DNA from: a virus | Lineage: Duplodnaviria > Heunggongvirae > Uroviricota > Caudoviricetes | DNA length: 64,000 nucleotides | Virus record (IMG/VR): IMGVR_UViG_3300020049_013266 | Coordinates: 10,815-74,814 of that record | Strand: one strand, 5' to 3' | Part shown: in pieces, positions 9,095 through 61,265 of the stretch | Numbering within the stretch: the stretch's first letter is position 1 | How the letters are laid out: each line of letters begins with the position of its first letter | Position numbers and translations under genes: made by a program | The notes under the pieces: model-generated | The model's input: the letters and a program-made list of their open reading frames with translations, nothing else | What the model was told of the DNA's origin: nothing | The model's database searches: none

Positions 9095-9181
9095 CGGAAG
9101 ATGTAGGACTCGAACCTACACGCCATTACGACTAACTGTTTTCAAGACAGCATCCCTTAGACCAACTTGGATTAATCTTCC
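9095..9181 (-). tRNA. tRNA-Ser (anticodon UGA), type II
   Basis: Acceptor GGAAGAU/AUCUUCC, anticodon stem GCUGU/ACAGU with loop CUUGAAA, long variable arm, T-arm GUAGG-UUCGAGU-CCUAC; 86 nt. Confidence 0.7.
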
Positions 9182-9186
9182 TTTTG

Positions 9187-9260
9187 TAGAAGCGGTGGGA
9201 TTTGAACCCACAGCGGAACAGATTTTAAGTCTGATGCGTTTACCCTTTCGCCACGCTCCT
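9187..9260 (-). tRNA. tRNA with anticodon UAA (Leu-type anticodon on a short-variable-loop body)
   Basis: Acceptor AGGAGCG/CGCUUCU (one G-U pair), D-stem GCG/CGC, anticodon stem (U)CAGA/UCUG(U) with loop CUUAAAA, 5-6 nt variable loop, T-arm GUGGG-UUCAAAU-CCCAC; 74 nt. Confidence 0.6.
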
Positions 9261-9266
9261 TTTTAG

Positions 9267-9349
9267 TGGGAGTAGATGGGCTCGAACCACCTACCTATGC
9301 CGGTTACCAGATTTACAGTCTGGCGCTTATCCTGTTTAGCATTACTCCC
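9267..9349 (-). tRNA. tRNA-Tyr (anticodon GUA), type II
   Basis: Acceptor GGGAGUA/UACUCCC, D-stem GCU/AGC, anticodon stem CCAGA/UCUGG with loop CUGUAAA, long variable arm, T-arm GGUGG-UUCGAGC-CCAUC; 83 nt. Confidence 0.75.
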
Positions 9350-10320: not shown

Positions 10321-11220
10321 ATGAGTTCAATGAATCCTCAGATTTATTACGAAGATGAAGATAATAACGGAAGTTATGTCTATGTATCGTTAGAAGAAAT
10401 GGTGCTTAATTTCACAGCCAATTACACTGGCAATGGAAAAATATTAAACAAAGTGCCTCGTTCAAGAATAATCTACCAACTAAAGCAAGGAATAAAGAAA
10501 TTCAGCATGAACGCTTTGAGAGAAAAAAAATGCGTAGAATTAGAACTTGGCGATACGTTAGACATTATTCTGCCTCCAGATTTCGTCAACTATACTAGGA
10601 TATCTTATGTGAATCCGGAAACGGGAGAGTTGATGGGTTTGTCAAGAAATAATAATATTGCAATGGGTACTGCTTATTTGCAAGACGATGAAGCCAATAT
10701 ACTGTTCGATGATGATGGATTTATTTTGGAAGGAACAACATTCTTTGAGGAAGTAAATGATCAGGTAAATAAAAGAGAATTCTTAGGGTATTTAGATTTA
10801 GGGTGTATCGGAGCGTATCCTTATCCTTATACAAACGGATACGGAATTATAAGGCAGACTAATTTTTTACTTGACCCATCTCAAAACGCAAATGGATATT
10901 TCAACATAGATACAAGACAAGGTAAGATACATTTTAGCTCTGATAATGCAAGTAGAGTTATAATGCTTGAATACATATCAGACGGATTGGAATATAGTAA
11001 TGAAAGTGATATTAAAGTGAGTAAATTGGCCGAAGAAGCTTTGTATAATTTCGTTAATTACGAATTAATGAAAACTATGTTCGGAGTTCCGATGTATGAA
11101 AAAAATGAAGCTAAAAAAATGTGGTTTGCTGCATATAAAAACGCAAAAATAGCTATGATGGACATTAAGATTGATGACGTCATGTTATTTTTAAATAAAA
11201 AACGCCAATGGATACGATAA
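10321..11220 (+). CDS. hypothetical virion structural protein
   Basis: 299-aa ORF, spaced 3 nt after the previous gene. Confidence 0.55.
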   Translation: MSSMNPQIYYEDEDNNGSYVYVSLEEMVLNFTANYTGNGKILNKVPRSRIIYQLKQGIKKFSMNALREKKCVELELGDTLDIILPPDFVNYTRISYVNPETGELMGLSRNNNIAMGTAYLQDDEANILFDDDGFILEGTTFFEEVNDQVNKREFLGYLDLGCIGAYPYPYTNGYGIIRQTNFLLDPSQNANGYFNIDTRQGKIHFSSDNASRVIMLEYISDGLEYSNESDIKVSKLAEEALYNFVNYELMKTMFGVPMYEKNEAKKMWFAAYKNAKIAMMDIKIDDVMLFLNKKRQWIR

Positions 11221-30119: not shown

Positions 30120-30821
30120 TTATTGCACAACTTCTTCGGTAACGAGAACTTTTCCCGCCCATTGTTGCGCCATAGCTTTGGCAATATTTGGGAAAGTTTT
30201 ACTGCTTTCTATTTGGCTTATATTCTTGAACTGATATTTCTGATCTCTTTTTTTTCCACCAGTATTGCTCGGTAAATAAGGCACGTAGTTTTTTTTAATA
30301 TCAGTTGGTTTCAATTCAGGTAGGTTTTTAAGCCATAATAACGTTCTTTTTGAAAATTCGTGTCCAAATTGATAAGGTTGTATAGTTTGCGTTTCTTTTG
30401 GCAGTCCTACAACTTTTAATGGTAGTGGGTTTTCTAATGAAATTTTATCAATTGGTGCGTTTTTTAATTTCAAGAAGAAATCTTTTGCATCCATCGCTTT
30501 TTTTAATCTTTCAGGACACAAATTACCCGCAGTTGGGTACATCCATCTTGCCCCTGCTCGGCTCATAAATGTGCAAGGCGGGAAAAATATCCCCATATCA
30601 TATTTACCGCTATAAGCTTCTTTCAACACATCGCCTTGAATATGCCATTCGGGGTGTCCGCCTGAACACGGCATTAAATCACAACTATACGCTTCGTGTC
30701 CTAATTTTCTTAATTCAATTGTAACTGCCTGTGATTCCTCGCAACCGACCAGAACAACAAGCGGTAACACGTGATTGTAGCTATTGCCAGATTGGTCTTG
30801 AATTTGATTATTGTTTTGCAT
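30120..30821 (-). CDS. TRD-less C5-cytosine methyltransferase-like protein (paralog 1)
   Basis: Motif I-like LVGCEESQAV, motif II GHEAYSCDL, catalytic motif IV FFPPCTFMSRAG (PCQ.FS.AG-type), motif VI ENPLPL, motif VIII-like QFGHEFSKRTLLWL, motif X-like FPNIAKAMAQQW; only 233 aa, so there is no room for a target-recognition domain. Confidence 0.6.
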   Translation of the reverse strand: MQNNNQIQDQSGNSYNHVLPLVVLVGCEESQAVTIELRKLGHEAYSCDLMPCSGGHPEWHIQGDVLKEAYSGKYDMGIFFPPCTFMSRAGARWMYPTAGNLCPERLKKAMDAKDFFLKLKNAPIDKISLENPLPLKVVGLPKETQTIQPYQFGHEFSKRTLLWLKNLPELKPTDIKKNYVPYLPSNTGGKKRDQKYQFKNISQIESSKTFPNIAKAMAQQWAGKVLVTEEVVQ

Positions 30822-31084
30822 CTTAATTATTGTTTTTTAATTTAATGAATCGGTTTGTTTTTTGGCAACAGCGACAATCACCATACGTTAGGCGATATTT
30901 CACCCGACATTTGGTTTTAATGTTCTGTCTAAATTTCCACAAAGGATACATTTTGAACCTTTGCATTTTCCACGTTTCCAATAAAAATTATAGATATGCG
31001 CACAAGAAGAAACATCGCCTAACAGTGGTTTGGTTTCAGCTTTTTCATTGGTTTTTAATTTATCCATTGTCTTGTATTTGTTGA

Positions 31085-40302: not shown

Positions 40303-40593
40303 TTAATTAAATTTTGGTTTGTAAGCGGTGATTACTGGTTCTCTGTTGTATGTGTACTGCTTTGTTCCGCAAATAGCACATTCTCTGCTCCATCGAGCTT
40401 TTTCGACATCCCTGTATCCGGCAAAACTCCAGTGAGGATCTGATCCCGCTCCATCCTGAACACTTCCGTATCCTTCTTTGACAGTTTCAGGATCATAAAT
40501 AGCTGCTTTGAATGAGTGGGTACAATTTTTTATTTTGTTTTTCTCCGACTCAATCTGTCTTTGTAATTCGTTTATTTTATCATTAGGATTCAT
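40303..40593 (-). CDS. hypothetical protein
   Basis: 96-aa ORF downstream of the integrase gene; 11-nt overlap. Confidence 0.4.
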   Translation of the reverse strand: MNPNDKINELQRQIESEKNKIKNCTHSFKAAIYDPETVKEGYGSVQDGAGSDPHWSFAGYRDVEKARWSRECAICGTKQYTYNREPVITAYKPKFN

Positions 40594-41836
40594 TACTGTT
40601 CCATTTGTTATGCATTATTTCAGCATATTCTTGTTTGCTTTTTTTGTTATAATGATTTAACATATTGCTGTTTTTGCTCCATCCCATAATGGCTGACAAA
40701 GTTTCGTTGTCAACTTTTCCATAGAAGTTGGACGCGAATGATTTGCGACAAACGTGCGAGGAAATAAGTTGCCACTTCCTGTAATAGCCAAAAACCTTAC
40801 GCTTACGTTTTTTATCAAACAACTTCCCGTACATCTGCTTATCTATTTCACAGATTTGGCAAATTGTTTTAATGTGAATATTGAAATCGGTTTTACTTAT
40901 TTTTGGTGGCAGATTACCGAAGTTTGATTCAATTACTTTTTTTAATACCGGATGAATGGGAACCACGATTCTTTTGCCTGTTTTCTGCGTTTTAATTTTG
41001 AATACACCATCTGAAATATTAGAAGTGTCTAATTTAGAGAAATCCCCAAATCTCATTCCTGAAAACACGCCAACCAAGAAGTTTTGCTTTGTAATATCCA
41101 ATTCGTAATTATCTGAAAAATCGTGATCAATAATGCTTTGTATTTCGGCTTCATTCAAATAAACTCCCTCAGCATCTTCGTCTTTATCGAAATAGATTCT
41201 TTGTTTAAACGAATTACTTACTTCGATATTGTGTTCGAGTGCGCGATTAAGGAAAAATCGGAACCGGCCAACGTGTCTTTCAATTGTGGAAACCTGGTAA
41301 AACTCAGTTTCTAAATAATCCGCAAATGATTTCAGGTCCGAAACGCGAATATTTCTCAACTGCAGTCGCTCTCCGATTACTGATTCATATTCCGAAACAA
41401 TGGAGACGAATTTTTTGTACTGGTTATGCAACGGCAATCCCATTTTTTTCTTACTTGATACATTCCAATCGTCAGCATGATTTTCCAGCCACCACAGCGC
41501 AAAATCTACTAAATATATAGTATGTGCCGGATTAATCATTTTTAACTCTTCTTTAGGGCGATTAAAGCTGTTTTTTATGGCAGATGCAACCCAGAATTTA
41601 TCAACTATAATTCCCCTGCTAAAATCGTTATTGTACTGTTTTAGAAGATCTGTTTTTAATTGTTGCAGCGAAATGTTCAATCCCGGATTATTAATAACGC
41701 TCTGATTATCTAAATCCCATTCAGCATCTTTCAACATGATATTTGTTGAACATGAAATATCCAATTTAGAATATCTCATTCTAACAAGGAGTTTCTTAAC
41801 CTCCTTTCTTCCTTGTAATGAAAATGTAATGTTCAT
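40583..41836 (-). CDS. int: tyrosine-type site-specific integrase
   Basis: 417 aa with a catalytic-domain signature: GMRFGD (Arg I), HVCRKSFASN (H..R box II), MGWSKNSNMLNHY (H/W...Y catalytic Tyr); N-terminal arm/SAM-like region. Confidence 0.7.
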   Translation of the reverse strand: MNITFSLQGRKEVKKLLVRMRYSKLDISCSTNIMLKDAEWDLDNQSVINNPGLNISLQQLKTDLLKQYNNDFSRGIIVDKFWVASAIKNSFNRPKEELKMINPAHTIYLVDFALWWLENHADDWNVSSKKKMGLPLHNQYKKFVSIVSEYESVIGERLQLRNIRVSDLKSFADYLETEFYQVSTIERHVGRFRFFLNRALEHNIEVSNSFKQRIYFDKDEDAEGVYLNEAEIQSIIDHDFSDNYELDITKQNFLVGVFSGMRFGDFSKLDTSNISDGVFKIKTQKTGKRIVVPIHPVLKKVIESNFGNLPPKISKTDFNIHIKTICQICEIDKQMYGKLFDKKRKRKVFGYYRKWQLISSHVCRKSFASNFYGKVDNETLSAIMGWSKNSNMLNHYNKKSKQEYAEIMHNKWNSNES

Positions 41837-48161: not shown

Positions 48162-48264
48162 GATAAGAAATAGCTGTTTTATCCTGTTGCTTCTTCAGTT
48201 TTGTGTTACCGCCCCCGAAGGGACACGCTTTGAGCCTAAAACCTTTTTATTGTCGCTCAAACGA

Positions 48265-48942
48265 CTATTTTATTCTTGAAACGTTGTAAATATCAAACAT
48301 TTTTCCACCTGCAACACTTTGCCATTTTAAACCAATAGCCTTAAATATTGAAGGATAACAACTAACACCAACTCCACCTTCGAAATAAGGTAAAACGCCA
48401 TACCCTGAACCATACCCAAAAATATCTCTATTTGATTTGTTTTTGTTTGCAGATTTATAAAGATTTGCTTTTAATACATCACTTTGGTTTAAAGCCTCAG
48501 CTATTGCAGTGCTTAATTTATCATAACCACAACCAGAAACATAACGACTTTTAAAATACTCACAATCGGTATTGCCTTTAGCATCTTTAAAAGAAACCCA
48601 TACTTCAGCAGTAGGATTTAATCCCCACATTTTAGACTTTGCCCACTCAACCGTTATTTTGATTTCAGTTATTTTAAATAACTTATTTTCAACACTTTTA
48701 ACTTCTTTTATCTTTTCAGAAAGTCTCAAGGCACTTTTTTCTTTTATTTTAGAAACAAGAACTTTTTTAAATTTACTAAAAGTCATTTCTTCAATTCCTT
48801 TAATCTCTTTTTTAGAAAATAAACCTCTATAGTAAGCATAATCCAAAAATGATTTTACATCTTTTTTTTCTTCATTAAAAGACAAGCTTTTTTTAAGTTC
48901 TACTTTTGATTCTCTATTTAATTTTGCTATAAGTGTTTTCAT
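48265..48942 (-). CDS. hypothetical protein (225 aa)
   Basis: Longest ORF in the small-gene region; Gly-rich C-terminal half. Confidence 0.5.
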   Translation of the reverse strand: MKTLIAKLNRESKVELKKSLSFNEEKKDVKSFLDYAYYRGLFSKKEIKGIEEMTFSKFKKVLVSKIKEKSALRLSEKIKEVKSVENKLFKITEIKITVEWAKSKMWGLNPTAEVWVSFKDAKGNTDCEYFKSRYVSGCGYDKLSTAIAEALNQSDVLKANLYKSANKNKSNRDIFGYGSGYGVLPYFEGGVGVSCYPSIFKAIGLKWQSVAGGKMFDIYNVSRIK

Positions 48943-50311: not shown

Positions 50312-50560
50312 TTAGTTTAATGTATTGTTGTTAAATGCTTCATAACATATACTTCTAATAGTAGAATCTAACATTGTTTTAGAATAGTATATTTTATTTG
50401 TTTCAAGTAATGCGTAAAGAGTTTTGATGTCCGCATTTTCAATTAATAATTCAAAAGTATTTTTCATGATGATAGTATTAAAATTAGTTCCTCGATTCCG
50501 TTTCAAACGTAGCCTTATAGACAAATCGAGGATTGTTCTTTTACTGCATTTCGCCAACAT
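50312..50560 (-). CDS. hypothetical protein (first gene of the long minus-strand block)
   Basis: 82-aa ORF facing the large noncoding region. Confidence 0.4.
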   Translation of the reverse strand: MLAKCSKRTILDLSIRLRLKRNRGTNFNTIIMKNTFELLIENADIKTLYALLETNKIYYSKTMLDSTIRSICYEAFNNNTLN

Positions 50561-51953
50561 AAAAGAGTATTATATAAATAAAGTCTCTAATAAATAGAGT
50601 AAATATAATCTATGTATTAAGCGTGTACCTTTGTTCGCACCCTGCAATCACTGTCTAAATAAATAGTAGCTTTATATGATACTTGTAACACCGCTTTTCA
50701 ATATGTCAAATAACTTGTAATGATAAACATGTAAGAGTTAAATACTGTTATTGTCTCTCTAACACATGGCAATATTACGTCATTAATTTGTTACCTGCAA
50801 CAAATTATATAATTATTTTTAACATTTATTCGATGTTAAACGTTTGTTGTCGGCTACGAAATACAAAACCTCAGCAAATACAAGGGTTTGAAGCAAATCA
50901 TTAAAAAGGCCTAAAACGACAAATAAACAATAGCAAAGTATCACATAACACAAAATAGGTTTATAATTATCCTATAAGGCCACAATTAAAACAATCCTCA
51001 CGCATAGAATAACACCAAACAAAAACATCCTGAAACACCACAATAAAACATCTACATAACAACAAAGCAAATACACTTAATATAAGACCATAAAACCAAA
51101 ACCACGTACAAAACCATCATATAGGAAAAACAAGCCAAATACCGCTCACAAAAACACCTTAAACACATCTTATTAATATACTCTATATACAGAGAGACAA
51201 ACACACGCTATTTTATAACGATTCCATAACCTAAAGTTATAGTAACCATAATCACAGGCTATAGGACAGCTTACAGTCTCTACCAACGTAGTAATAGCAA
51301 GGGTTTACGCCAAATGAGAATCGTATTTAGTTGCTGATTCTGTACATTGGTTTACAAAGTCGGAGTAATCGAGAACGCTAAACGCATAAAGCATTGTATT
51401 ATAAGGGTTTAATATTGGTTTATGCTAATCATACTAAGATTAACTATTTAATGAATAGGATAGGTTTAAGCCTGATTTGTAGATTGGTTTGTGATGTGAA
51501 CCCAACCACAGCAAGGCAAGCCGATTTGAAACGAATTAGAAAAGCAAAACCAAAAATAGACCCCGCCCCTGTTTTAAATTACGTTTTCGGATACGCAAAC
51601 CAGGGCGTCAGATGAGAGGTAGCCTCAACCCTCTACCTTACTCTACAGTTTACAAAGCCCCGTAGATACTCAGGTTGGGCGAAGATTGGCTGCGGTCGCT
51701 TGTAGGTCCTACGTAGCGTATCGCTGTCGATTATGGTTCCGGATGACGCTTAGTACGCCTGAGGGAGTTTTGATAGCTTAAACAGCTTTGTTTTGATCCG
51801 GCTGTTGAAGAATGCTGATACGCTGCAAAGCCCAGTAAATAGGCTTTGGTCAATACGTAAACAGTGAGGAGACAAAAAAAGGTACTCCGTGATAGTGTTT
51901 TATTGAATAATATATTGTACGTTTGTCAAATATTAATCTAATTAAATCGAAAA
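50561..51953. other. 1.4-kb noncoding regulatory hub / possible origin region
   Basis: No credible ORF. Contains the operator-like motif GGCAATATTACGTCA (50768-50782) and the palindrome AATTTGTT-N6-AACAAATT (50785-50806). It also holds the element TAAACGTTTGTTGTCG in reverse orientation (50837-50852). An A+C-rich, G/T-poor tract runs about 50990-51175, and a GC-rich (about 50%) structured segment about 51590-51880. A TAcgTTTG -7 box lies at 51918-51925, ahead of the plus-strand block. Confidence 0.6.
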
Positions 51954-52439
51954 ATGGGTAAAAAGGTGATTCTGCATTTATGCGCTGATCTGGGAAGCGA
52001 TAGTTTGTTTTATCAATTATCAGACGATTACGAAGTAATAATGATTGGTGAGGAGATTGGAGTTGAGAACTATAATCCTCCGGCAAACGTTCACGGGATT
52101 ATTGCCAATCCGGTTTGTACTGAGTTATCTACTGCTAATGGATTTCATAAAGAAAATGATTTAAAGAAAGGGATGTTTCTGGTTGATCACTGTTTCAGGA
52201 TTATAGAAGTTGCAAAACCTGTTTGGTGGGCTATGGAAAATCCTGCTAATGGCAGATTGAAGGAATTGATCTATACACGTCCCGGGAGGCCTAAACCGGC
52301 TCTGGCTTTTCTTCATAAAAGTGCTGTGAATTTGATACCGGAATTTCAATGGGCGAAGGACATGATAAAATGCGATGCTGATATTCGTTCAATGTGTTCT
52401 CAGGGTTTTGCAAAAGCTTTTTTTGAATCTAATGAATAG
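51954..52439 (+). CDS. divergent C5-methyltransferase-like protein (paralog 2, possibly degenerate)
   Basis: 161 aa; IANPVCTELSTANG (PC motif IV-like), ENPANG (motif VI-like), C-terminal GFAKAFF (motif X-like); the motif I Gly-loop is degenerate (HLCADLGS). Confidence 0.45.
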   Translation: MGKKVILHLCADLGSDSLFYQLSDDYEVIMIGEEIGVENYNPPANVHGIIANPVCTELSTANGFHKENDLKKGMFLVDHCFRIIEVAKPVWWAMENPANGRLKELIYTRPGRPKPALAFLHKSAVNLIPEFQWAKDMIKCDADIRSMCSQGFAKAFFESNE

Positions 52440-52919: not shown

Positions 52920-52934
52920 TATTAAATAAAAGCT

Positions 52935-53585
52935 ATGGAAAAACTAATATTAATTGGTTGCGAGGAAAGCGGAACCGTTCGTGATGCTTTTTCTAAAATG
53001 GGACACGAAGCTGCAAGTTTGGATTTATTGCCGACTCTTTCTCCAGGAACACACATTCAAGAAGATATTATCGAATATTTGGAATCTATGCCGGACAATC
53101 ATTTCGATTTAATTGGCCTTCATCCAGAGTGTACGAAATTGTGTGTTTCCGGAAATCATGTTTATGCTGCCGGAAAGCCAAAACATCAAATGAGGCTCGA
53201 TCAGGTAAAATGGGTTGAGAAACTCTGGGATTTAATGAAGCGAAAAGGAAAAAGCGGTTATTTGGAAAATCCGGTTGGTGTTCTCCCAAGCCTTTCGAAT
53301 TTACCGAAACCTCAATATATTCAGCCTTTCGAATTTGGCGAGGATGCAAGCAAGAAAACAGCACTTTTTCTGCATAATTTGCCAAAACTCGTCTCTTCAA
53401 ATAGATTTCAGGGGCGAATTGTTGAATTCCCGAAAGGAAGCGGAAAAATGGTCGAGCGCTGGAGTAACCAAACAGATTCCGGACAAAATAAATTAGGTCC
53501 ATCAGAAGACCGATGGAAAGTCCGCTCGAAGACCTATGATGGAATTGCAAATGCTTTTGCTGATCAGTGGCTAAACAATAATTAA
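52935..53585 (+). CDS. TRD-less C5-cytosine methyltransferase-like protein (paralog 3)
   Basis: 216 aa, collinear with the 30120..30821 protein: LIGCEESGTV (I), GHEAASLDL (II), GLHPECTKLCVSG (IV), LENPVGVL (VI), FEFGEDASKKTALFL (VIII-like), YDGIANAFADQW (X-like). Confidence 0.6.
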   Translation: MEKLILIGCEESGTVRDAFSKMGHEAASLDLLPTLSPGTHIQEDIIEYLESMPDNHFDLIGLHPECTKLCVSGNHVYAAGKPKHQMRLDQVKWVEKLWDLMKRKGKSGYLENPVGVLPSLSNLPKPQYIQPFEFGEDASKKTALFLHNLPKLVSSNRFQGRIVEFPKGSGKMVERWSNQTDSGQNKLGPSEDRWKVRSKTYDGIANAFADQWLNNN

Positions 53586-54471: not shown

Positions 54472-54557
54472 TTAAGTGTTGGCTGAGTGGTTGAAAGCAA
54501 CGGGCGACCATACCCGTGGGAGGTAATTACCCCGAAGGTTCGAATCCTTCACACTTA
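54472..54557 (+). tRNA. tRNA-like gene (type II, Ser-like body) with non-canonical anticodon loop CGACCAU
   Basis: Acceptor UAAGUGU/ACACUUA, D-arm GCU-GAGUGGUUGAA-AGC (Ser-like), anticodon stem ACGGG/CCCGU with a loop lacking U33, long variable arm, T-arm GAAGG-UUCGAAU-CCUUC; no encoded CCA. Confidence 0.45.
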
Positions 54558-54737
54558 TCTTAGCAAGGTATAAACATTAAGGAAAATTCGTCACAGGTTT
54601 ATATTAAGTTGCAGACGGACCTACATGCTACAGGTTAAAAAGGCTTACTCATAAAGTCTAGCAAGCACAAACTAACGAGGAAAGCCGGATGCGATAACAT
54701 CAATTCCGGTTTAATTTAACCAAAAACCAAAATAACC

Positions 54738-58894: not shown

Positions 58895-59194
58895 CTAAAA
58901 TACTAAAACGATGTCTGGGTAAAAAACCAGTATGTATGGATTTCCATCTTGTGTGAATGGAGTTGTTTTGTATTTGTCAAACACAACTTCTGCTCCCTCG
59001 GTTAATACGTAACTCCCATCATCATATCTTGGGGTTCCTTGCCCAACGGAAACTACACGACCTCTTTTCTGTTTTTCGTTAGCATCAACTATTCCAGTGA
59101 TATCTATTCCTCCTGCAGTTTTGTTTTCATTGAAAATCTCCTCCACAACTACAATCATGTTTAATGCCTGTCCTTTGAATTTATTTGGTGTCAT
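58895..59194 (-). CDS. groES: co-chaperonin GroES (cpn10)-like
   Basis: 99 aa; ...EEIFNENKTAGGIDITG...RGRVVSVGQG...VVFDKY...ILVF... follows the GroES pattern (mobile loop, AGGI, VG.G, roof hairpin). Confidence 0.65.
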   Translation of the reverse strand: MTPNKFKGQALNMIVVVEEIFNENKTAGGIDITGIVDANEKQKRGRVVSVGQGTPRYDDGSYVLTEGAEVVFDKYKTTPFTQDGNPYILVFYPDIVLVF

Positions 59195-60743
59195 GTGCGA
59201 ATCTTTTTAAAGTGATAACGTTATCAGTTCTTAATAAATTATTTGAAGCAGAAGCAGATGTAATTAAAGCTGTCTTAATACCTTTTGCGGTATCGATTAT
59301 TCCTGCTTCAAACATATCTACATTTTCGTATTTCTTTACGTCATATCCAATAGGGTATTTAGGATATTTTTCTCCTGTAGATTTTACGCCAGCATTTTCC
59401 ATTATTTTCATAAACGGAGCTTTTATGGACCAAGCTGTAACATCATCAATAAGAGTATTTTCGTTTTCAAAAATACTTAGTAATGCAATTCCTCCTCCAG
59501 CAACAACTCCACCGTCCTTAGAAGATCTTACAGCGCAAATAGCGTCATCAATACGTGCTACTTTTTCTTCCACTTCACTAGGGGTAATTCCTCCTACGAA
59601 TACAGTAGAAATTCCTCCAGAAATTTTAGAAATTCTTTCACGGATATAATTCTTTTCTGATTCGTTTGTCTGTAGTTTTATTTGAGCGGCCAAGTCTAAA
59701 ATTTTGCCTTCAATTTTTTCTTTGTCAATATTTTTGTCGGCAGTAATTACTGTATCTTTTTTTCCAATTTCAATACGCTCACATGATCCAAGATAAACCG
59801 GCTCCTTTCCATCATAATTTGTTCTTGAAATACCTTCCAAAACTTCACACCCAAGAATTAAAGCCAAATCTTTCATCGTTTCTCTTCCTTTTTTACCTTG
59901 ATAAGGAGGGCGAATAATGCAGAATGGATAATTGTGCTTGATTCTGTTTTCCAAAATCATATTGGAAATATCATGGGTCATATTTGAAATAATAACAAGA
60001 GGTCTTCCCTGACCGGCAGAATAATCCAGAAACGGAATAACTTCATTTGCGGTTTGGAAATTTATTGATGAGCAAAGAACCAATGGATTATCAAAAACAA
60101 CTGACTGAGTTTCGTTTACATTGATGAATCCTTCGTGTAGGTAGCCGGAATCAATCGGATTTCCTTCAATATGCTCCACATACGTTTCATCTGTAAAACT
60201 TCTTTTGTGTGATACAATTCCATGTTCTCCGGCTTTAATGAAGGCTTCTTGTACAATTTTTGCAATTTCTTCATCTCCGTGAGCAGATGTTTTTGCAATG
60301 TCAAACATTAATTCATCTGTAACCGGAATAGCTATGGAGTCAATGTATTCTAAAACTTTTAAAACCGATTCGTCAATTTTGTTTTTTATTTCGATAGAAG
60401 AAGTGCCTTTTTTTAATTCTTCAAGAGAGTTTTTGAAGAAAGCTTGTGTAAGCACGCACACCAAGGTGGTGTTGTCTCCTACGAGTTCAAATTGCTTTTT
60501 CGTGGCCTCTTTCAATATTTCACAGGCTATATGTTCCATGGCATCTTCGAAATAAAGCTGTTCCAAACTATCAAAACCATCTGCGGTTATATTAGGAAGT
60601 CCTCCGGCTGTCTCAAACAAAACATTAGAACCTCGATATCCCATAGTACTTCCAATGATGTCGCAACTCTTGTTAAGACCGCTTAATAATTTCTCCTTTG
60701 CCTCATCTCCAGAGACAACTTCTCTTAAAATAGTATTACTCAT
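59181..60743 (-). CDS. groEL: chaperonin GroEL (cpn60)-like
   Basis: 520 aa. N-terminal region collinear with GroEL (GYRGSNVLFE..GGLPNITADGFDSLEQLYFED..EHIACEILKE, and GDNTTLVCVLTQA corresponding to GDGTTTATVLAQA). Equatorial C-terminal region GIIDTAKGIKTAL matches GILDPTKVTRSAL. No GGM tail. Confidence 0.75.
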   Translation of the reverse strand: MSNTILREVVSGDEAKEKLLSGLNKSCDIIGSTMGYRGSNVLFETAGGLPNITADGFDSLEQLYFEDAMEHIACEILKEATKKQFELVGDNTTLVCVLTQAFFKNSLEELKKGTSSIEIKNKIDESVLKVLEYIDSIAIPVTDELMFDIAKTSAHGDEEIAKIVQEAFIKAGEHGIVSHKRSFTDETYVEHIEGNPIDSGYLHEGFINVNETQSVVFDNPLVLCSSINFQTANEVIPFLDYSAGQGRPLVIISNMTHDISNMILENRIKHNYPFCIIRPPYQGKKGRETMKDLALILGCEVLEGISRTNYDGKEPVYLGSCERIEIGKKDTVITADKNIDKEKIEGKILDLAAQIKLQTNESEKNYIRERISKISGGISTVFVGGITPSEVEEKVARIDDAICAVRSSKDGGVVAGGGIALLSIFENENTLIDDVTAWSIKAPFMKIMENAGVKSTGEKYPKYPIGYDVKKYENVDMFEAGIIDTAKGIKTALITSASASNNLLRTDNVITLKRFAHDTK

Positions 60744-60761
60744 TTTTTTATTTATTTAGAT

Positions 60762-61265
60762 TTATATGTGATCCCATACTTGATTTAATTTTATTCTGCT
60801 AATGTGAGCGCAACTAACATTGAATATTTTAGACAAAGCTACTCCAGTTAATACACTAGTTCTTATTTCTAACACATCTTTTTCTGTAAGTTTTGAGAAC
60901 CCATTTTTTTCGCCTCTCAATGCAGAATTTAATCCGTTTACCCATGCATGATCCACGTTTTCTTTAGTCGTACTCCATTCTAAATTCCAATCATTATTGT
61001 TGGTTTTATCCCCGTCCTTGTGATTTACTTCGGGTTTGTTTTCAGGATTTGGAATAAATGCCATCGCAACTAATCGATGAACTTGGAAATGCTTTCTTTT
61101 TAATCCATATAAAGTCACTCTAAAATATCCTTTGGTTGTTGTTGACAATGTTAGATTTTTAATTTTTTTTACTTTGGTGGATCCGTTGAATTTTAAATTT
61201 CTAACATTTCCAGAATTACTAACCTGATAATTCTCATAATCAATAATGTTTGCCCATTTTTCCAT
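60762..61265 (-). CDS. HNH homing endonuclease (paralog of 4369..5040)
   Basis: VHRLVAMAFIPNPENKPEVNHKDGDKTNN, the classic HNH_3 motif; N-terminal NUMOD4-like YENYQVSNSGNVRN; C-terminal HTH-like region. Confidence 0.75.
   Translation of the reverse strand: MEKWANIIDYENYQVSNSGNVRNLKFNGSTKVKKIKNLTLSTTTKGYFRVTLYGLKRKHFQVHRLVAMAFIPNPENKPEVNHKDGDKTNNNDWNLEWSTTKENVDHAWVNGLNSALRGEKNGFSKLTEKDVLEIRTSVLTGVALSKIFNVSCAHISRIKLNQVWDHI

Follow-up and report, generated by a model that had tools for sequence, protein, structure and literature searches.

Two intact copies and one broken copy of a minimal C5-methyltransferase-fold gene in a caudovirus genome

Minimal C5-methyltransferase-like proteins of phages

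Cytosine-5 (C5) methyltransferases of bacterial type II systems, such as M.HhaI, M.HaeIII and E. coli Dcm (Pfam family PF00145), are proteins of 320-470 aa, and a target-recognition domain (TRD) of 80-200 aa is placed between their motifs VIII and IX. DNMT3 acts as a tetramer that is assisted by DNMT3L and has regulatory domains. In Bacillus phages SPR, phi3T and rho11s, multispecific orphan C5-methyltransferases are used for self-protection against several host restriction enzymes. Much smaller phage proteins, of ~200-230 aa, are grouped under the label phrog_757, "DNA methyltransferase", a name that comes from annotation only. Here, three genes of this kind are described in a 64,000-nucleotide stretch of a Caudoviricetes virus (positions 10,815 to 74,814 of IMG/VR record IMGVR_UViG_3300020049_013266), and this whole stretch is called the window. 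The genes are designated copy A (30120-30821, minus strand), copy B (52935-53585, plus strand) and copy C (51954-52439, plus strand). Copy A is a genuine and complete gene, and the phage family of ~200-aa proteins to which it belongs is very common and already labelled. We favour, with a probability of roughly 0.6, the explanation that A and B are S-adenosylmethionine (SAM)-dependent DNA 5-methylcytosine (m5C) methylases with different short targets, which protect the phage DNA.

The closest described relatives are the phrog_757 proteins of Cellulophaga phages phi18:1, phi17:1 and phi46:3, Clostridium phage phiCs5676-1, Pelagibacter phage HTVC111P, cyanophage 9515-10a (gp12) and Pseudomonas phage PA11. 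Such proteins share 39-55% identity with the window protein over ~88% of the length, and they have the same size, the same single-domain layout and the same replication or methylase setting. The deposited carriers have one A/B-type copy, whereas the window has two together with a broken C-type copy. Compared with the type II enzymes, the window protein has only a linker of ~40 aa at the place of the TRD, and the FxGxG motif I is not kept. The catalytic domains of DNMT3A and DNMT3B (PDB 6u8p, 4u7t) show 14% identity with no significant sequence match; motif I of DNMT3A, FDGIATG, is likewise without the full GxGG. The Bacillus phage enzymes combine several TRDs in one large polypeptide, whereas separate mini-enzymes, each with its own linker, would serve the same end in the window. 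To our knowledge, this is the smallest C5-methyltransferase-like architecture, with ~200 aa, no recognition domain and a non-canonical cofactor loop.

The first-pass annotation of the window, made from the sequence alone, spoke of an unusual enzyme family, which was not borne out. The phrog_757-labelled family comprises at least 8000 clusters at 90% identity and, at 50% identity, 6,938 clusters (E<=1e-3) or 4,241 clusters (E<=1e-10), nearly all of them of 195-235 aa. The hosts of its carriers include Flavobacterium, Cellulophaga, Vibrio, Pseudomonas, Ruegeria, Arthrobacter, cyanobacteria, Pelagibacter, Clostridium and Methanosarcina. Annotations of the deposited members vary from DNA methyltransferase, DNA cytosine methyltransferase and SAM-dependent methyltransferase to hypothetical protein. 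A family of this size has no Pfam or NCBIfam model, and its activity and specificity are easily testable.

What is uncommon is the number of copies. Queried with A, the deposited phage genomes yielded 158 carriers of the family, and queried with B, 184; none of them has a second A/B-type copy (158 places in 158 records and 184 places in 184 records). In an A-queried search of databases of this size, we estimate, a B-like copy would reach about E 1e-11, and a second copy would therefore have been detectable. Of 80 loci from IMG/VR, each seen with flanks of up to 10 kb on either side, three have two real copies (L007, L024 and L081), as does the related phage contig L001; three further loci that seemed to have two copies have one gene interrupted by a stop codon or a frameshift. 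Thus, two intact copies and a broken third in one phage are uncommon, yet the multi-copy state recurs in uncultured phages. A lineage with several diverged cassettes is a natural system for asking whether a 40-aa linker alone sets specificity.

Copy A is an ATG-to-stop open reading frame (ORF) of 233 aa. When the six-frame translation of the window was scanned with hidden Markov models (HMMs), exactly three family members were found, at 30123-30836 (-), 52926-53582 (+) and 51942-52436 (+). It had been claimed that A is collinear end to end with the protein encoded at 52935..53585. Indeed, the pairwise and the profile alignments of A and B are both significant. BLASTP aligns residues 22-221 of A with residues 4-212 of B at 31% identity (77 bits, E 6e-22), with no contribution of low-complexity sequence to the match, and hhalign, with a profile built for each protein from its own database homologues, gives a probability of 100% and E 6.4e-46 over 201 columns. 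The motif strings quoted in the first-pass annotation are all present in A, and their partner strings are all present in the 216-aa protein B. The similarity of A and B is therefore real, collinear and not an effect of low complexity. Next to no credence is left for the idea that it arose by chance or from low complexity, or that the ORF of copy A is no gene; this is excluded by the two E values, the thousands of homologues and the confident predicted fold. An alternative GTG start at 30770-30768, instead of the ATG at 30821, is possible for A because its homologues begin near residue 20 (query coverage 86-88%).

Fold and motifs of copy A

The phrog_757 profile matches A with E 1.4e-46 (residues 20-226 on positions 14-223 of 247), B with E 2.2e-47 and C, partially, with E 3.1e-11. 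An AlphaFold2 model of A, based on 122 homologues, has a mean predicted local distance difference test score (pLDDT) of 83.9 and a predicted template modelling score (pTM) of 0.81. Confidence is low for the first 20 residues, the C-terminal tail and residues 181-200. The model shows the class-I Rossmann-like fold of a C5-methyltransferase catalytic domain, and in a Foldseek search against predicted viral structures the named matches were all cytosine methylases; several others were likewise of 200-250 aa and a few were fused to helicases. For B, the fold is settled by sequence homology. The same mini-methylase fold was also seen inside huge phage proteins, namely BFVD entries A0A6J5NPY6 (1126 aa) and A0A6J5SE15 (1397 aa), one of which is annotated as Helicase/UvrB N-terminal.

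Besides the fold, it was the C-type subfamily that gave the connection to the canonical enzymes. PF00145 is the sole Pfam family matched by many members of the family (37 of 143 at E<=1, from an alignment of mixed A, B and C types). A and B themselves do not match PF00145 at E<=1 and do not pass its gathering score. A C-type protein, P0331, does pass it, scoring 34.1 bits where 22 are required, and its match at profile positions 59-110 takes in motifs IV-VI. C-type proteins also give weak matches to the C5-methyltransferase models of PADLOC, again in motifs IV-VI. When the C-type profile was compared with the PDB, the only match was M.HaeIII, with GIIANPVCTEFS placed over GIIGGPPCQSWS and WWVIENP over FFLAENV. 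The C-type and A/B-type profiles in turn align from motif IV to motif VIII with 95% probability and E about 2.5e-8 (hhalign). Because of this chain, Cys83 of A can be read as the catalytic cysteine, and Glu130-Asn131 as the Glu and Asn of ENV. Direct hhalign comparison of the family profile with single canonical sequences was not significant (E 0.37 for Dcm; E 0.003 and a probability of 10% for DNMT3A), and only motif IV was aligned sensibly, together with motifs I and III in the case of Dcm. A pairing of E28 of A with D641 of DNMT3A was not used, as the N-terminal part of the DNMT3A alignment looks spurious.

Along copy A the motifs can be followed in order (all on the minus strand; conservation is given for the 122-sequence alignment). 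Motif I is at residues 24-33, LVGCEESQAV (30723..30752), where an xCExS loop replaces the canonical FxGxG cofactor loop. Of its residues, E28 is invariant and S30 is conserved at 90% or more, and the loop is present in 120 of 150 family representatives, as GCEESQ in A and GCEESG in B. In the Dcm alignment CEESQA lies over FAGIGG, a pairing that is not significant on its own. Next come Asp48, invariant and at the end of strand 2, and Asp64, which is at least 90% conserved and lies in HIQGD (30630..30680). In M.HhaI, these positions are presumably taken by the acidic residues of motifs II and III, which bind the ribose and adenine of SAM (its adenosine). HIQGD is paired with FNEDI of Dcm, which is consistent with such a role of D48 and D64.

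Motif IV occupies residues 79-90, FFPPCTFMSRAG (30552..30587), and contains the putative nucleophile Cys83. P81 is invariant, and C83 and T84 are at least 90% conserved. The segment aligns with PCQ of Dcm, with PCQ of DNMT3A and, via the C-type proteins, with GGPPCQ of M.HaeIII; the Pro-Cys element is present as P82-C83 in A and as P-E-C66 in B. Motif VI is represented by LENP at residues 129-132 (30426..30437), the equivalent of ENV, with E130 and N131 both invariant; here the chain runs from A-type ENP through C-type ENP to M.HaeIII ENV. A motif VIII-like segment spans residues 148-164, QPYQFGHEFSKRTLLWL (30330..30380), and has invariant P149, G153, K158, T160 and L162. Its residues 151-164 are the string QFGHEFSKRTLLWL quoted in the first-pass annotation. 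The distance from QP to K(K/R)T is constant in the family representatives, at 10 residues. A conserved FG-x4-K-(K/R)-T-x-L stands at the expected place of motif VIII and is a candidate counterpart of its QxRxR.

A variable linker at residues 169-206 (30204..30317), modelled with low confidence (pLDDT 62-64 for residues 181-200), stands at the place of the canonical TRD, so that the protein is without a TRD and indeed minimal, as the first-pass annotation had called it. Between A and B only 4 of 38 linker residues are identical, with 9 gap columns, compared with 50 of 142 in the core. This segment, 39-75 aa long across representatives, is the most variable internal spacing of the family. A and B differ also at the loops of residues 51-60 and 91-100. 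A motif IX/X-like C-terminal helix follows at residues 207-222, SKTFPNIAKAMAQQWA (30156..30203), in which 9 of 16 residues are identical between A and B; residues 210-221 are the quoted string FPNIAKAMAQQW. In total, the family-invariant residues are E28, S46, D48, H60, P81, G90, E130, N131, P149, G153, K158, T160 and L162. All of them are present in A and in B, and C is without the segment from P149 to L162; H80F and G212N are the only deviations of A from the family. Since the FxGxG loop is replaced and a linker takes the place of the 80-200-aa recognition domain, A is better regarded as a minimal and divergent branch of the C5-methyltransferase fold than as a standard member of PF00145.

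Cassette turnover and proposed function

Copy B is an intact B-type member of the family. Its orthologue in L001 is 87% identical and is the best-conserved protein of its block, and on this ground B appears to be retained by purifying selection. Copy C, a 161-aa member of the more distant C-type subfamily, has a 45-aa in-frame internal deletion that removes motif VIII. The missing 45 residues, GKPKLIYQPWEFGSPWTKRTALWG..., are kept in all relatives (~205 aa) and include the QPWEFG..TKRT motif. The deletion was recognized from a 45-residue gap against P0249 and from the matches of the family-C HMM, which cover positions 2-106 and 149-205 only. The C-type subfamily has 2,604 proteins, with 205 aa as the typical length, and is represented in 24 deposited phages. 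A single 161-aa form is recorded in the protein database, P0241, which is identical to C and comes from a 74.8-kb JGI contig. In the model of A, the equivalent stretch holds two or three beta strands in addition to motif VIII. Judged from this loss, C is probably inactive.

The three genes had been called paralogs. Their homology stands, strong for A and B and only at the profile level for C, which has no pairwise similarity to A or to B. Duplication within the genome does not stand, as A shares 45-55% identity with proteins from phages of Clostridium, Cellulophaga, Vibrio and Pelagibacter but only 31% with B. The nearest homologues of A are 92% identical to it. Its closest homologue on a long contig, with 91% protein identity, lies on a 34-kb phage contig, L083; the DNA match (86% over 576 bp) does not reach beyond the gene. 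The L083 backbone is otherwise unrelated to the window, with one further ORF shared. Because the DNA identity ends at the gene borders, a single-gene horizontal transfer is indicated, and A seems to move as a single-gene cassette. On L083 (9109-9789 and 10001-10675), a D12-class adenine methylase lies two genes upstream of the A homologue, and terminase lies downstream of it. A megablast search of the region against deposited phages gave no match.

From the low mutual identity of A and B and the presence of an A copy in an unrelated backbone, it follows that the two are separately acquired cassettes, brought in by horizontal transfer, and not in-genome or local duplicates. They are members of subfamilies that diverged deeply. 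In L001, the first slot of the plus-strand block (4751-5437) is occupied by an intact A/B-type gene with 44% identity to A; in the window the same slot, at 51954, holds the broken C-type gene. From this comparison, the slot looks like a swappable cassette site. The broken C and the exchanged first-slot gene show an active turnover of cassettes, as expected from an arms race with host restriction.

The proposed mechanism is as follows. Copy A would bind SAM and flip a cytosine out of double-stranded phage DNA. Cys83 would attack C6, Glu130 of ENP would protonate N3, and the methyl group would go to C5. A short DNA sequence would be read by the ~40-aa linker (residues 169-206) together with the subfamily-specific loops at residues 51-60 and 91-100. 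The linker is what diverges most between A and B, and the loops differ too; these segments may contact DNA, and the targets of the two proteins may differ. Made from the replication-gene block, A would mark new phage DNA against host restriction enzymes. B would be the second intact enzyme, and with its completely different linker it would presumably recognize another short site. Together A and B would give multi-site protection, with C as a decayed third cassette.

That the proteins are DNA methylases is suggested by the catalytic set, the putative adenosine-binding positions, the placement among replication and orphan methylase genes, and the lack of a conserved partner. In 81 related loci, the neighbours are replication genes, ParB-domain proteins, Dam-type methylases, RusA and terminase. 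ParB-domain proteins are often fused to DNA methylases. No obligatory partner or specificity subunit was found in these loci, where the commonest neighbour occurs in 17 of 81. A and B had no match among the defence methyltransferases of PADLOC, either.

Several points weigh against the methylase explanation. The canonical motif I, the FxGxG(G) SAM-binding loop, is absent and xCExS stands in its place, so that SAM binding is not assured. A and B gave no match in Pfam, NCBIfam, PADLOC or PDB sequences, whether searched as single sequences or as the 122-sequence profile (E<=10). Full-text literature searches found no paper characterising the mini-family and no biochemical test of it. A has Asn at position 212, where 98% of relatives have Gly, and this could weaken the protein. 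The 4-base palindromes of the window are also skewed, with observed/expected ratios of 0.53 for GATC, 0.58 for GGCC, 0.50 for CGCG and 0.42 for CTAG (depleted), 1.30 for CCGG (enriched) and 0.99 for GCGC (neutral). The skew may reflect sites that the phage methylases do or do not protect; it is only suggestive and was not used as evidence.

The Asn at position 212 bears most on the possibility that A is a decaying or non-catalytic relic, or a DNA-binding decoy, like C, and that only B is active. G212N is unique to copy A (the sole other deviant, P0177, has Asp), a clearly degraded copy is present in the same genome, and the N-terminal extension of 20 residues on A is modelled with low confidence. 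The frame of A is nevertheless full length with every family-invariant residue present, H80F is often seen in the family (20 of 150 representatives have AFPPCT), and nearest homologues with 92% identity exist. We regard a relic as unlikely. Slightly less weight is given to the view that the fold was kept for a different chemistry or cofactor, such as nearly context-independent methylation, another C5 adduct or a SAM-independent reaction. It is the replacement of the glycine-rich SAM loop by the acidic xCExS loop that raises this possibility. D48, D64, the Pro-Cys element and ENP are kept as in ordinary methylases, however, and plain methyl transfer is the simplest reading of them.

A wider form of the same view is that the xCExS mini-enzymes as a whole are a separate functional branch of the C5-methyltransferase fold and not ordinary site-specific methylases. 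Lacking a recognition domain and having an acidic cofactor loop, they could modify cytosine with hardly any sequence specificity or attach a group other than methyl; this we regard as similarly doubtful. If it were true, a lineage that shuffles such cassettes (A in the replication block, the swappable plus-strand slot, and B) would create a combinatorial DNA-modification pattern, and a family of ~7,000 clusters without a Pfam model would be a new class of phage DNA-modification enzyme. Finally, the substrate could be RNA, for example tRNA cytosine-5, as for DNMT2, with tRNAs of the phage or of the host being modified. This appears very improbable, as the best structural matches are DNA enzymes, the gene lies among DNA methylases and replication genes in other phages, and both the number of copies and the swapping of cassettes are in keeping with a restriction arms race. 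The reading of A and B as DNA m5C methylases is preferred.

Genomic setting

The window looks like one large phage genome. Portal and virion proteins are encoded on the plus strand up to 24370. The minus-strand block contains genes for a sliding clamp, DnaC-like and DnaD-like loaders, an exonuclease and an integrase, and A is located in this replication block, downstream of two plus-strand genes and a short ORF of 55 aa. The plus-strand block starts at 51954, with C as its first gene, and B is part of the same block. A is thus placed in a different block from B and C, in agreement with the first-pass annotation. L001 is a 72-kb contig from a metagenome-assembled genome (MAG) of Bacteroidota, and it is syntenic with the window from 46 to 64 kb.

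A divergent GroES/GroEL pair lies at 58895-61265 (-), beside an HNH/NUMOD4 homing endonuclease (Cpn10, 52 bits; Cpn60_TCP1, 133 bits). The GroEL is 81% identical to that of the sister phage L001. A division of the window into two elements, for example a prophage beside host GroES/GroEL, was considered and rejected, since this GroEL is divergent, flanked by the homing endonuclease and syntenic in L001. A tyrosine integrase (PF00589, phrog_1) is encoded at 40583-41836 (-), in the middle of the minus-strand block. An integrase in a ~75-kb phage with tRNAs and chaperonins suggests a temperate lifestyle.

Several RNA elements were noticed as well. Five tRNA genes, Leu-TAG, Ser-GCT, Ser-TGA, Leu-TAA and Tyr-GTA, are located at 8915-9349 (-), inside the structural region. 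At 54473-54559 (+), ARAGORN reports an unusual tRNA-like element whose anticodon has four bases (acca), without confirmation by Rfam. A full-length match to the Pistol self-cleaving ribozyme was found by Rfam at 48204-48266 (-), with 62.8 bits against a gathering score of 34.5 and E 4.6e-9. It lies at the stop codon of a 225-aa ORF (48265..48942), with an overlap of 2 nt, and this ORF has no family match. Between the divergent blocks, a region of ~1.4 kb (50560-51950) is without a convincing ORF. Two sub-stretches of it, 50689-50901 and 51382-51612, show translated conservation with L001 at 51-55% identity, and the region could be a regulatory or origin region, or could hold small genes or RNAs.

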